Source: Candidatus Nomurabacteria bacterium (GTDB taxonomy: Bacteria > Patescibacteriota > Minisyncoccia > Phycocordibacterales > JACOZG01). Taken from it: a stretch of 61,285 bases of DNA. Numbering within the stretch: position 1 is the stretch's first letter; each line of letters starts with the position of its first letter. The stretch lies in the NCBI GenBank assembly GCA_020847275.1, contig JADLCI010000006.1, forward strand, positions 1 through 61,285, in the 5' to 3' direction. This document shows, in pieces, positions 5,275 through 17,840 of this stretch. The position numbers were made by a program, and so were the translations under genes. The notes beneath the pieces are model-generated. The model searched no databases. It was not told the DNA's origin and was given only the letters and a program-made list of their open reading frames with translations.

Positions 5275-6471
5275 ATGTTCGAAAAATTAAAAAAAATTTA
5301 CCACTACAGTCTCGCGCTCGCCGGAGCGCTTATTTATCAATTTCCATCACGGAAAATTAAGGTGATCGCCGTAACCGGAACAAAAGGAAAAACTAGTACA
5401 GTAGAAATTATCAACGCCATCCTAGAAGAAGCCGGCTATCAGACGGTAATTTCTTCCACCTTACGTTTTAAGGTTGGTGAAGAATCCGTAAATAATCGAC
5501 GGAAGATGACGATGCCCGGACGTTTATTCTTACAGAAGATACTGCGTCGCGGTGTGAACGCTGGTTGTGACTATGCAGTTGTTGAGATGACAAGCGAGGG
5601 GGCCAAGCAATTTCGACATAAGTTTATCGAGCTAGATGCCCTTGTGTTCACAAACATCGCCCCAGAGCACATCGAGTCTCACGGTTCTTATGAAAACTAC
5701 CTAAAGGCTAAGTTGGCAATAGCCCACCAACTATCTCGATCAAAAAAATCCCCCCGATTTATCGTCGTCAACGGGGACGACAAAGAACATACGAAATTCC
5801 TCCAAGCCGCAGGTAAAGATGCCCAGAAAGTTGTGTATAAACTAAGTGACAACGAAACGCTAAAGCTGCACACCAGACTGCCCGGAGAATTCAACCTTTA
5901 TAATGTTCTAGCTGCCGCCCGCTTGGCAGAGACACAGGGTGTGGGACCAGAAATCATCCAAGAGACTCTAAATAATTTCGCTGGGATTCGTGGTCGAATG
6001 GAACCGGTCGGGCGACAGGAATTTGATGTCATTGTTGATTATGCCCACACGCCGGATTCACTTCGTGCGGCCTACAAGGCACTGAACAACAAAAGAAAAA
6101 TCTGCGTCCTCGGTGGCACTGGTGGTGGCCGCGACCATTGGAAGCGGCCACTGATGGGCCAGATCGCTAGCGAAAATTGTGACCGAATCTTTCTGACCGA
6201 TGAGGATCCCTACGACGAAAACCCAGAGGAAATCGTGAAACAGGTTGCCTCGGGCATCAAGTCAAATAATTACAAAGTAATAATGGACCGTCGTGAAGCA
6301 ATTCGTGAAGCGGTGAGAATTGCCCAACCAGGTGACGTGATAATTATCACTGGTAAAGGCACCGACCCCTACATTATGGGCGCAAATGGTAAAAAAACAC
6401 CGTGGGATGACGCCACGGTCGCCCACGAAGAACTTGAAAAATTAAGAGATGCCCGAACTACCAGAAGTTGA
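5275..6471 (+). CDS. murE: Mur ligase, MurE-like
   Basis: VTGTKGKTST P-loop, EMTSEG, FTNIAPEHI, VDYAHTPDS, DEDPYDE motifs. Confidence 0.85.
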   Translation: MFEKLKKIYHYSLALAGALIYQFPSRKIKVIAVTGTKGKTSTVEIINAILEEAGYQTVISSTLRFKVGEESVNNRRKMTMPGRLFLQKILRRGVNAGCDYAVVEMTSEGAKQFRHKFIELDALVFTNIAPEHIESHGSYENYLKAKLAIAHQLSRSKKSPRFIVVNGDDKEHTKFLQAAGKDAQKVVYKLSDNETLKLHTRLPGEFNLYNVLAAARLAETQGVGPEIIQETLNNFAGIRGRMEPVGRQEFDVIVDYAHTPDSLRAAYKALNNKRKICVLGGTGGGRDHWKRPLMGQIASENCDRIFLTDEDPYDENPEEIVKQVASGIKSNNYKVIMDRREAIREAVRIAQPGDVIIITGKGTDPYIMGANGKKTPWDDATVAHEELEKLRDARTTRS

Positions 6472-7261
6472 GACGCTTAGACGCGAGCTCGCGATAATTG
6501 CCGGCAAGAGAATCAAGTCGACAACTGTCTTTTCTCGTCAATTAGAGAACAAAAAAATACTCGGCCTAGACCGGCGGGCCAAGATATTGATTATTACTCT
6601 TTCTGATAAACGAAAGCTGCTTATCCATCTCAAGATGACTGGTCAACTTATTTTTGTCCCCAAGAAGGGCCAAGTCATACTTGGTGGCCACCCACAGGAA
6701 AACCCATTCAAATATACTCGCGCTATTTTTGAATTCACCGATAAATCAAAGCTGTATTTCAACGATTTACGTAAATTTGGTTGGATAAAATTGCTAAATG
6801 AATCGGAAACAGAAAACATTTTAAACAAACATGGCGTAGAGCCACTTAGCAGAGACTTCACCCTATCGCACTTCCAAAGTTTACTGAAAAAGTATCCGAA
6901 TCGGAAAATAAAGCAATTCCTCCTAGACCAGAGTCTCATCGCTGGTTTGGGAAATATCTACGTGGATGAAAGTTGTTTCTCGGCCAAAATTCTTCCAACC
7001 AGAATTGTCAAAAGTTTAACTCCAGTGGAACGAAAAAACCTACACTCCGGAATCGTAAAGATCCTTAAGCTTTCCGTTAGTAAAAAGGGAACTTCGGCAA
7101 AAAATTACGTACGAAGCGACGGAACCAAGGGCGGTTTCGTCCCCTATCTCAAAGTTTACGGCCGAAAAGGTGAAGGGTGTAAGCGCTGTAAGAAAACGGC
7201 AATCACAAAAATAAAACTTGCTGGCAGGGGCACGCATTTCTGCAAGAATTGCCAGAAATAA
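6449..7261 (+). CDS. mutM: formamidopyrimidine-DNA glycosylase
   Basis: MPELPEVE N-terminus, HLKMTG, GLGNIYVDE, C-terminal CxxC...CxxC zinc finger. Confidence 0.97.
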   Translation: MPELPEVETLRRELAIIAGKRIKSTTVFSRQLENKKILGLDRRAKILIITLSDKRKLLIHLKMTGQLIFVPKKGQVILGGHPQENPFKYTRAIFEFTDKSKLYFNDLRKFGWIKLLNESETENILNKHGVEPLSRDFTLSHFQSLLKKYPNRKIKQFLLDQSLIAGLGNIYVDESCFSAKILPTRIVKSLTPVERKNLHSGIVKILKLSVSKKGTSAKNYVRSDGTKGGFVPYLKVYGRKGEGCKRCKKTAITKIKLAGRGTHFCKNCQK

Positions 7262-7285
7262 AAAAGCTGGGGATTTCTCCCCAGC
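7260..7285 (-). terminator. intrinsic terminator of the candidate sRNA
   Basis: On minus: GCTGGGGA-GAAA-TCCCCAGC followed by TTTTTT. Confidence 0.8.
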
Positions 7286-7395
7286 CGATTGAGTCTGTTT
7301 GGACACTCACTGTCAACCCGCAACTGAGCGCATGCTCCGAAGAACACGATTGAATAGTTGTGTGACTCGGTTGTCCAAAGTTCACTCCATCTGTC
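7261..7395 (-). ncRNA. candidate ~135-nt structured sRNA (irregular rod with cUUCGg apex)
   Basis: Own promoter and terminator; stems TTTGGACA/TGTCCAAA, CAACT/AGTTG and CGTGTTC-TTCG-GAGCATG; no credible ORF. Confidence 0.65.
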
Positions 7396-7399
7396 CACA

Positions 7400-7427
7400 A
7401 GGATAACAAACTCACAGAAATTGTCAA
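7400..7427 (-). promoter_or_regulatory. sigma70-type promoter of the sRNA
   Basis: On minus: TTGACA-16 nt-TATCCT with extended TG. Confidence 0.7.
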
Positions 7428-7505
7428 GGGATTTTATTGTTTTGCGGTTTCTCATGCCAAAAAAGCTATGTTTAGAGCCATGTTCTTGGGTCGTATGTAA
7501 AATGA

Positions 7506-7976
7506 CTAAACGTTTAGAAGTCTGAAAATCGCAATCCCTGCCGCCACGCCCACGTTCAACGACTCTTTCTCTCCCCTCATCGGAATCTCAATAACATGGT
7601 CACAAAGTTGGATAATTTCTGGATCAACCCCGCCAACTTCGTTGCCGAGAATCAGAGCAATATCACCATCAAATTTTGCCTTCCTGTAATCAACCGCTCT
7701 CCTGTCTTGTTCCAGCGCGACAATCTCAAAATTTTCTTTTTTCAGTTTTGAAATTAGGGTTTCCAAATTATCAAACTTTCTCCATTCCATAATTTTCTCT
7801 GCGCCCAGTGCCGTTTTGGCAATTTCTTTATTTACCCGCTCAAACTTATCTTTAGGCATTGGTGTATAGCCAGTGAGATAAACCTTCTTAAGCCCCGCCC
7901 CTTCCGCGGTTCGGAAAATCGAACCCACATTGTGAGCACTTCGAATATTGTGTAAAATGAGAACAATGTTAAGCAT
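7506..7976 (-). CDS. TrmH/SpoU-family RNA 2'-O-methyltransferase
   Basis: LHNIRSAHNVGSIFRTA, LGNEVGG, IPMRGEKESLNV motifs; start taken at ATG 7976. Confidence 0.92.
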   Translation of the reverse strand: MLNIVLILHNIRSAHNVGSIFRTAEGAGLKKVYLTGYTPMPKDKFERVNKEIAKTALGAEKIMEWRKFDNLETLISKLKKENFEIVALEQDRRAVDYRKAKFDGDIALILGNEVGGVDPEIIQLCDHVIEIPMRGEKESLNVGVAAGIAIFRLLNV

Positions 7977-8298
7977 ATTTCCTGCTCTGTTAACTGGTAG
8001 TCTGGCGGCTCCCACTATCTTGCGTCTAGTGGCCAGTCTAATTCTTATCCAGCACGGCCATCAGTCGACCCAAATGAACGAGGGAAAACGCCGTTGGGCT
8101 GGCGCAATCGAAATAGCGCTCGCCTTTTTGCTTCTCATTGGTCTCTTTACCCAACCCGTCGCGCTTGTTCTCGCTATTCTAATTACAGCAAGACCAGATA
8201 AACAAATCCTCGTCACCGCCCGCCTTTTGATGATTACCGTTTTACTCTCACTGGTTTTAACCGGCCCAGGCCTCTTTGCCTTTGATCTACCCCTCTAG
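7966..8298 (+). CDS. DoxX-family membrane protein
   Basis: MLSIFP...LRL...HG, IEIALAFLLLIGLFTQ, TGPGLFAFD motifs. Confidence 0.8.
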   Translation: MLSIFPALLTGSLAAPTILRLVASLILIQHGHQSTQMNEGKRRWAGAIEIALAFLLLIGLFTQPVALVLAILITARPDKQILVTARLLMITVLLSLVLTGPGLFAFDLPL

Positions 8299-15908: not shown

Positions 15909-17606
15909 ATGATCACCTTCAGAGACACTGGGGAAACAAAGAAACTGGAAGAACTTCACAGTCACGAAGCAGAGGCGCTCGCAGAAATGCTATCAGGAAA
16001 ATATCAGCTACCGTACATTGACCTATCTAAATTCCCCATCAATACTGATGCCCTGCGTCTAATACCCGAAAGTGAAGCCCGGAAAAGTGCTCTGGCGGCT
16101 TTTAAAATTAACGGTAAGAATATTTTCCTCGTTACAATCTCTCCCGAAAGGATAGAAACAAAAAATACCCTCAGTGAATTACGTGATAAAGGCTACCATC
16201 TCAATCTCTATCTAGCCTCCCAAGCGAGTCTGGATCGCGCTTGGTCCCGCTACAGCGAGATATCTCGCTCAACGCGGACAGAGGCTGGCGTAATCGACAT
16301 TTCAAATGAGGCTATCGCCAACTTCACCAAACAAATCAGCGACATCGATAGTTTGAATCGTTTATTCTCATCTGAGGGCTTATCTGCTCTCGCCGCTGGT
16401 GGTATCTCTAACTTGTTAGAAGTAATTCTTGCCGGTGGCATTGTAACTCTCGCCTCCGATATCCATCTTGAACCGGAGGCCGATCGTGTGCGCTTACGTT
16501 TCCGTTTAGACGGCGTGCTCCACGATATTAGCTTCCTCCCTCAAAAACTTTACGCCCAAATTGTCTCGCGTGTGAAGCTCCTTTCGGGACTGAAACTAAA
16601 TGTCCAGAAATCCGCCCAAGACGGTCGTCTGAGTATCCGGCTCGATGGTACTGATATTGAAATCCGTACTTCAATTTTGCCTGGCGCCTACGGTGAATCA
16701 ATCGTACTACGTTTACTTAATCCAGAAACGATTAATGTCACTTTTGAAACTTTGGGCATTGAGCCAGCCCTGTTTAAAATCGTCGAGAGAGAAATCACTA
16801 AACCAAACGGTATGATCCTCCTAACCGGGCCGACTGGTTCTGGTAAAACAACTACCCTTTACTCCTTCCTTCGAAAAATTTCTACCGGTGAAAACAAAAC
16901 CATTACCATTGAAGATCCGATTGAATATCACCTACCTGGAATCAGCCAAACCCAAGTTAATCCAGATAAAAATTATACTTTCCTAACCGGGCTCCGTAGC
17001 GCCCTTCGTCAAGACCCAGACATCATAATGGTTGGAGAAATCAGAGACAAAGAAACGGCAAAAATTGCCATTAACGCTTCCCTAACTGGACACCTCGTCT
17101 TCTCCACCCTCCACACCAACAATGCGGCTGGCACAATTCCAAGATTGATTGACCTAGATGTGAACCCTAAAATTATTGACTCCGCGCTTAATATCTCAAT
17201 GGCACAACGCCTGGTTCGAAACCTCTGTCCAGCGTGCAAAGAAGAAAGCACTCCCACTCCCACCGAAACGAAGCTACTGCTCGCCGTCCTCGAATCGATT
17301 AAGGAAAAACGGCCAGAAATTCCCCTCCCCACAGCAAACCGGTTGTGGCGAGCAAAGGAAGGTGGCTGTGCCGCGTGCAATCATATTGGTTACAAGGGGC
17401 GACAAGGGGTCTTCGAAGCAATTCTAATTGACGAACGAGTGGCTCCCCTCCTAGTAAGTAATCCGAATGAACGCGAGATAAAAATCGCTGCTCGACCGCA
17501 GGGAATTCTAGATATGCGTCAGGACGGTGTCTTAAAGGTCCTTGCGGGAGCGACCTCATTAGAGGAGCTGGCGCGAGTGGTAGATGTAAATGAAGAAGTT
17601 ATCTAG
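15909..17606 (+). CDS. pilB: PilB/GspE-family pilus assembly ATPase
   Basis: ASDIHLEP, AQDGR, GPTGSGKTTT, TIEDPIEY, LRQDPDIIMVGEIRD, STLHTN, tetracysteine motif. Confidence 0.93.
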   Translation: MITFRDTGETKKLEELHSHEAEALAEMLSGKYQLPYIDLSKFPINTDALRLIPESEARKSALAAFKINGKNIFLVTISPERIETKNTLSELRDKGYHLNLYLASQASLDRAWSRYSEISRSTRTEAGVIDISNEAIANFTKQISDIDSLNRLFSSEGLSALAAGGISNLLEVILAGGIVTLASDIHLEPEADRVRLRFRLDGVLHDISFLPQKLYAQIVSRVKLLSGLKLNVQKSAQDGRLSIRLDGTDIEIRTSILPGAYGESIVLRLLNPETINVTFETLGIEPALFKIVEREITKPNGMILLTGPTGSGKTTTLYSFLRKISTGENKTITIEDPIEYHLPGISQTQVNPDKNYTFLTGLRSALRQDPDIIMVGEIRDKETAKIAINASLTGHLVFSTLHTNNAAGTIPRLIDLDVNPKIIDSALNISMAQRLVRNLCPACKEESTPTPTETKLLLAVLESIKEKRPEIPLPTANRLWRAKEGGCAACNHIGYKGRQGVFEAILIDERVAPLLVSNPNEREIKIAARPQGILDMRQDGVLKVLAGATSLEELARVVDVNEEVI

Positions 17607-17805
17607 TTCACCGACAATCAAGAACATAAACCTCTAAGCAAACCTTCGACGTAAACGCCGAAGTGAGGTAAAACCGAAAGGATAGAGAAAGCAAAACAAC
17701 CGAAGTTATGAAACTGTCTCGTCCTCCTGGAAAAACCCGTTTAAACCCGGAAGAGCTTAGTTGCTTAGAGGTTTATGGTCTGGATTAGTGTCAAACTAAC
17801 GAACC
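17605..17805 (-). ncRNA. ~200-nt structured RNA with 6S RNA-like architecture
   Basis: Perfect 17-bp inverted repeat 17625-41/17761-77 extended by imperfect pairing; terminal stem ATAAC-UUCG-GTTGT; G-U pairs fit only the minus strand; consensus promoter upstream. Confidence 0.6.
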
Positions 17806-17811
17806 ACGGCC

Positions 17812-17840
17812 ATGCTAGCATAAAACAATTTAAATGTCAA
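17812..17840 (-). promoter_or_regulatory. sigma70 promoter; its palindromic -10 (ATGCTAGCAT) also serves ruvB on the + strand
   Basis: On minus: TTGACA(17840-35)-17 nt-TAGCAT(17817-12) with extended TG; the -35 overlaps the ruvB start codon. Confidence 0.75.

Follow-up and report, generated by a model that had tools for sequence, protein, structure and literature searches.

The stretch at 7260-7427 of the window (the whole 61,285 nt of DNA analysed here) is best read, from comparison with related genomes, as the species-specific non-coding cargo of a variable slot between the genes trmH and mutM. This reading follows from the combination of a conserved promoter module with a cargo that differs in each lineage. 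The unit would be either a young accessory small RNA (sRNA) or a decaying relic, and we give a probability of about one half to a transcribed, lineage-restricted accessory sRNA without a housekeeping role. We infer its transcription, start site, fold in vivo and any function that it may have.

The source genome, G000, is a Patescibacteria assembly of 537 kb (95.6% complete). Its trmH-mutM interval is laid out as follows:

7506..8015, minus strand: trmH, a SpoU/TrmH-type RNA methylase gene recognized by its ORF and translation; this gene flanks the slot upstream, and the slot is anchored at its 3' end.
7459..7479, minus strand: decayed trmH terminator (GGCT..AGC followed by T6), the first piece of the conserved slot module.
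7400..7427, minus strand: slot promoter (TTGACA, 16 nt, TGtTATCCT), located by a consensus scan.
7287..7394, minus strand: predicted transcribed cargo, with a putative +1 near 7394-7391 and then an imperfect rod hairpin at 7391..7287.
7257..7286, minus strand: intrinsic terminator and U-tract, from a terminator scan and the sequence.
6449..7261, plus strand: mutM, encoding formamidopyrimidine-DNA glycosylase, from its translation and Pfam domains PF01149, PF06831 and PF06827; it is the convergent downstream flank.

From promoter to terminator the predicted unit measures about 135 nt and is non-coding. Its flanks are those described in an earlier sequence-only reading of this DNA, namely a trmH-type methylase upstream on the same strand and a convergent mutM, whose TAA stop codon (7259-7261) lies inside the U-tract of the minus-strand unit. 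Orthologues of trmH were present in 30 of 32 relatives, and Pfam SpoU_methylase was matched on the gene calls of relatives. The MutM of G000 shares 55% identity with the MutM of a Candidatus Buchananbacteria MAG. A search of sequencing runs found sequence identical to the window in four low-depth wastewater DNA runs only, and in no RNA runs.

The promoter and the terminator are real, strong and beyond chance. The promoter TTGACA-16-TATCCT was located where the sequence-only reading had placed it, on the minus strand, with the -35 TTGACA at 7427..7422, a 16-nt spacer and the -10 TATCCT at 7405..7400; besides, it carries an extended -10 (TG at 7408-7407, same strand). Both strands of the 537-kb genome contain only 12 exact TTGACA-N16-TAnnnT sites, of which the slot promoter is one. 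The GAAA-capped terminator reported along with it is likewise present and strong: at 7286..7265 a 9-bp stem with 6 G-C pairs and a GAAA loop (arms GGCTGGGGA-GAAA-TCCCCAGCT) is followed by TTTTT[A]TTT. Direct inspection of the plus strand revealed the same hairpin without a U-tract, so it would be a poor terminator for mutM.

Throughout the family trmH and mutM are convergent neighbours, and closer relatives were reached through MutM homologues with 71-85% identity. The two genes are separated by only 3-7 nt in the same-genus genome G001 and in G006, where the slot is empty. In genus-level relatives the filled slots begin with a conserved 5' module in which the trmH terminator (GGCT..AGCC-TTTTT) is followed, after about 25 nt, by a near-identical sigma-70-type promoter with an extended -10; the sequence behind the terminator is approximately GGCAAAAATGAGGTAAAAACAC, followed by TTGACAAATTCTGTGGAGTTGCTATAMT. 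This promoter stands at the same place in G002 and at loci L186, L187, L188, L190, L192, L193 and L194. The module of G000 is slightly degraded. Its trmH terminator, which aligns with the intact GGCTnn..nnAGCC-GTTTTT hairpins of G002, L186-L188, L192 and L193, is weakened, about 12 extra nt precede the -35, and the -10 reads TATCCT where most relatives have TATACT. Local alignment of the G000 and G002 slots gave a score of 37 for the promoter part against 14.4 +/- 2.2 for shuffles, whereas the RNA parts scored 12 against 14.7 for shuffles. Directly after the -10 the slot sequences are unrelated, and their contents are the following:

G000: 135 nt, non-coding.
G002, L104 and L194: an RNA of ~170 nt and a convergent gene for a P-loop kinase-like protein of 183-189 aa.
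L186 and L187: a non-coding insert of ~270 nt.
L190: a non-coding insert of ~190 nt.
L188/9: an ORF of 99 aa.
L192: a receiver-like ORF of 196 aa.
L193: a membrane ORF of 100 aa.
G001 and G006: empty.

Every cargo has a terminator of its own, just ahead of the mutM stop codon, and the cargo RNAs of G000, G002, L186/7 and L190 end at or beside the 3' end of the convergent gene. The slot has a fixed 5' module and a 3' border at the mutM stop, and the sequence between the two differs from lineage to lineage, being swapped or rewritten. Homologues of the unit between mutM and trmH, which the sequence-only reading had proposed to collect, were not found; the slots of other lineages carry unrelated cargo.

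Some of these junctions show features of their own. The non-coding cargo of the closest relatives, L186 (853-1160, minus) and L187 (2814-3100, minus), whose MutM proteins are 85% and 80% identical to that of G000, had no Rfam match at E <= 1 and contains CCACUGGCAACAGGAGAGAAACUCC, which resembles what we take to be a segment of RNase P RNA, CCAGUGCAACAGAGAGCAAACC. Adjoining it is a duplicated scrap of the mutM 3' end (TTATTTCTGG..TTATTTCTGGCA), which is a recombination scar. At L094 (G005, another genus of the family) trmH and mutM are 186 nt apart, and this interval, which has no ORF, a different promoter-like site right after the trmH stop, several G-C-rich hairpins and a terminator, is a further non-coding cargo of the junction. 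In L188/L189 trmH is reduced to its last ~25 codons, which lie beside the module and adjoin the kinase-like gene in inverted orientation, so the junction is also a site of rearrangement.

The G000 unit had no relative in any of the searches. Rfam 15 gave no family at the gathering score in the window and none at E <= 10 in 7150-7560, the two scans giving only tRNAs and noise, and nothing relevant was obtained on 20 + 4 + 1 related loci. BLASTN of the unit against 60 relatives retrieved only promoter-like 29-mers, and neither tblastx nor BLASTN with short words gave a match in the genome or in any of the loci. A covariance model built from the single hairpin sequence (R1) had no match in 30 genomes of the family or in 32 loci; among 400 genomes sampled from the order it produced one 36-nt match to the apical hairpin, with a per-genome E of 0.007 that is at chance level. 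Phage records contained no match to the unit, and an 18-mer scan of viral contigs yielded two matches, both in jumbo-phage tRNA arrays, about the number that chance predicts. A MITE or repeated palindromic element was rejected because the unit is single-copy, with only chance matches of 11-14 nt elsewhere in the genome. The description of the unit as an unassigned non-coding RNA thus holds, with no Rfam match, no credible ORF and no similarity at the protein level. Of the two outcomes that the same reading had named together as counting against it, no transcript and no structural conservation, the second was also what we found, as no homologue appeared in the 30 family and 400 order genomes.

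The 105-nt irregular hairpin described earlier was borne out in its helices. These are P1 (GAUGGAGU/ACUCAAUC, with one G.A mismatch), P2 (UUUGGACA/UGUCCAAA), GUCA/UGAC, a CAACU helix with two alternative partners (AGUUG or GGUUG) and the apical CGUGUUC-UUCG-GAGCAUG, a continuous 7-bp stem with its cUUCGg loop at 7341..7338; the largest internal loops of the rod are 7x5 and 5x6 nt. However, the fold as a whole is no better than that of shuffled sequences. The hairpin alone (7394..7284) has a minimum free energy of -31.4 kcal/mol against -28.8 +/- 3.5 in dinucleotide shuffles (z = -0.77), 208 of 1000 shuffles fold as well, and so do 12.4% of all 111-nt windows of the genome. End-to-end pairing was seen in 21% of the shuffles, and in 4.7% jointly with equal stability. 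The terminator accounts for the z of -2.9 obtained when the unit is folded whole. On energy alone the hairpin is not more stable than chance, and the unit, known from a single sequence, is at most a putative structured functional RNA.

An accessory sRNA at this position could act on its neighbour. The promoter would fire to give an RNA of ~135 nt folded into the cUUCGg-capped rod, with its end at the terminator that overlaps the mutM stop codon, and the most likely mode of action would be that of an abundant convergent partner of mutM. Because mutM is without a good terminator, transcription of that gene should continue across the unit in antisense, and the resulting transcripts could pair perfectly with the RNA or collide with its transcription. 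Such pairing or collision might set the 3' end of mutM and shield trmH from antisense read-through. RatA and SR4 of Bacillus subtilis are type I antitoxins that act as 3'-overlapping convergent antisense RNAs, and they offer a possible parallel in that a small RNA is transcribed toward the 3' end of a convergent gene with a terminator region common to both. Here, however, the convergent gene encodes a repair enzyme and not a toxin, and the coding overlap is limited to the stop codon. In any case an insulator or antisense role cannot be essential, because G001 and G006 are without the module. Moreover, several of the cargos are ordinary protein genes, so the promoter may simply express whatever sits behind it, which says nothing on the function of the G000 cargo.

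The unit also resembles the orphan lineage-specific sRNAs of variable intergenic islets, which measure ~100-150 nt, lack an ORF, run from a sigma-70-type promoter to an intrinsic terminator, and are confined to one species and placed between conserved housekeeping genes. What sets it apart is that the promoter module persists from species to species while the part behind it changes, and that it occurs in a Patescibacteria genome of 537 kb, where non-coding DNA is very scarce.

A second kind of slot RNA bears on the relic alternative. It is a three-armed or rod-like RNA of ~127-170 nt found in G002 (L085:605-790, plus), at L194:3431-3556 (minus) and at L104. The slot promoter lies upstream of it, it has its own terminator and no Rfam match, and it ends antisense to the last codons of the convergent gene for the 183-189-aa P-loop kinase-like protein. 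It is a real conserved RNA: of its 43 predicted pairs, 5 show compensatory changes between the two lineages.

The G000 unit might be a non-functional relic of an earlier cassette, possibly of this G002/L194 type after loss of the kinase-like partner gene, and heading for deletion as in G001; we hold this to be less likely than an accessory sRNA, though the likeliest of the alternatives. It would account for a fold no better than shuffles, for the orphan status of the unit across about 430 genomes and for the partly degraded upstream module. G000 lacks the kinase-like gene that G002, L194 and L188 carry. TTGG lies at +21 from the -10 in both RNAs, and the two also seem to have in common the register of a TTGG(A/T)CAA motif (TTGGNCAA), a 5' GG(A/T)CAG and a layout with P1 ahead of P2 (GGAC/GUCC in one RNA, GGUC/GACC in the other). 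In spite of these resemblances, R2, a covariance model made from both known members (G002 and L194), which themselves score 143-145 bits, found nothing in the window at E <= 10, and the local alignment of the two RNAs stays below shuffles. A relic is also hard to reconcile with the compactness of Patescibacteria genomes and the clean deletion of the spacer in G001, for G000 has kept a promoter close to consensus and a G-C-rich terminator stem of 9 bp.

Look-alikes of the slot promoter precede unrelated genes elsewhere, with one copy in G000 (C1:3900) and two in G002. The G000 copy (contig C1, ~3900 to 3555, minus; locus L185) is a paralogous slot promoter between dusB and dnaX, upstream of a ~345-nt unit with a well-placed Shine-Dalgarno, a 22-codon ORF (MKTHYGGCFEPEIHSFFETNHR) and a terminator, and without a meaningful Rfam match at E <= 10. 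In Bacillus it is the SRP RNA gene that lies upstream of dnaX. A short motif recurs behind these promoters: GTTGG occurs in the first 40 transcribed bases of 6 of 10 unrelated cargo types (post-hoc binomial P of 2e-6), and GTTGG(T/A)C occurs in the first 5-25 transcribed bases of G002, L186, L188, L192, L193 and L003. In G000 the corresponding sequence is TTTGGAC, in register with the G002 type. Candidate roles for GTTGG(T/A)C are those of an initial-transcribed element, of a protein-binding site and of a recombination site.

The slot and the look-alike promoters might together form a promoter-first cassette system in which a conserved ~32-nt promoter with GTTGG(T/A)C behind it marks the exchange site of unrelated RNA and protein cassettes, integron-like but without a recognisable integrase, and the 135-nt RNA would be one of its cassettes. 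We regard this idea as quite improbable. It has in its favour that integrons, with their Pc promoter, attI and swapped promoterless cassettes, also combine a fixed promoter with interchangeable cargo, some of it non-coding. The slot, in contrast, has no integrase nearby (its neighbours are trmH and mutM), holds a single cargo and gives each cargo its own terminator. Homologous recombination through the flanks explains the exchange of cargo equally well. An attC site was rejected because the hairpin arms show no GTTRRRY/RYYYAAC pair.

Three other readings, of the unit as a 6S RNA, as a small protein gene or as an SRP RNA, carry very little weight even when taken together. The sequence-only reading had raised a minimal or second 6S-type RNA, which would mimic an open promoter to bind the RNA polymerase holoenzyme. 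Like 6S RNA (RF00013; 6S-Flavo RF01685), the unit stands alone between promoter and terminator and forms a largely double-stranded rod, and RF00013 matched nothing in the whole genome at E <= 1 that might already fill the role. Yet no Rfam family, 6S models included, matched 7150-7560 at E <= 10. Typical 6S RNAs have ~150-200 nt and a large central bubble, whereas this rod has no such bubble and, as had been noted before, only ~105 nt, about half the usual length. The unit is moreover not conserved even inside the genus, the slot being empty in G001, so that a 6S role did not hold up and appears highly improbable. A longer 6S-like candidate also exists at 17605-17840 (minus). This ~190-nt unit, with a TTGACA promoter, is closed by a stem of 17 bp (CATAAACCTCTAAGCAA / TTGCTTAGAGGTTTATG) around inner hairpins with UUCG caps; although RF00013 did not match it either, it is a better 6S-like candidate than the unit at 7260-7427.

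A small protein gene missed on either strand has a slightly poorer chance still. Mechanically called ORFs do cross the region, 74-99 aa long on the minus strand and 34-55 aa on the plus strand. However, the long minus-strand ORFs continue across the terminator and into mutM in antisense, no ORF has a Shine-Dalgarno sequence at the proper spacing, and a tblastx search of the genome and of 190 loci retrieved no relative. Where the sequence-only reading had counted a single ATG, there are two, opening Met-Glu-stop and Met-Arg-Ser-Val-Ala-Gly-stop, and neither is preceded by a Shine-Dalgarno sequence.

A divergent SRP (4.5S) RNA is effectively refuted: the unit shares with the bacterial small SRP RNA (RF00169) a rod-like hairpin of ~100 nt with its own promoter, and no competing candidate came from RF00169, which matched nothing in the genome at E <= 1, but no SRP model matched the region at E <= 10, the tetraloop is UUCG and not GNAR, the symmetric and asymmetric loops of helix 8 are missing, with the cUUCGg apex sitting on a continuous stem (the sequence-only reading had likewise noted the lack of the helix-8 CAGG/GGAA/AGCA motif), and the genome encodes neither an Ffh M domain nor an SRP54-type GTPase as a partner.

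This last point is an observation in its own right. Neither PF02978 (Ffh M domain) nor PF00448 (SRP54-type GTPase, of Ffh and FtsY) was detected in G000, a six-frame scan of the genome found no DTAGR motif and no combined set of SRP-GTPase motifs, and tblastn with E. coli Ffh gave a best E of 0.76. Nor was either domain detected in any of the other Patescibacteria sampled (31 genomes from the order, 121 from the phylum, 3 named ones), whereas the 14 control genomes were all positive for SRP protein domains. A literature search found no paper that states the absence of Ffh and FtsY from Patescibacteria.

By itself the unit is an ordinary candidate for an orphan sRNA, and it does not fill the role of a missing 6S or SRP RNA. 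The apparent absence of Ffh and FtsY, if it holds, far outweighs the sRNA in importance, as the Patescibacteria would then be a phylum without the SRP pathway. The slot shows that even Patescibacteria genomes of 0.5 Mb keep a small hypervariable site with a fixed promoter, where closely related species differ in the non-coding RNA or small protein that they carry. This makes it an accessible system in which to follow how genes arise and are lost in these bacteria, and what accessory RNAs do there.
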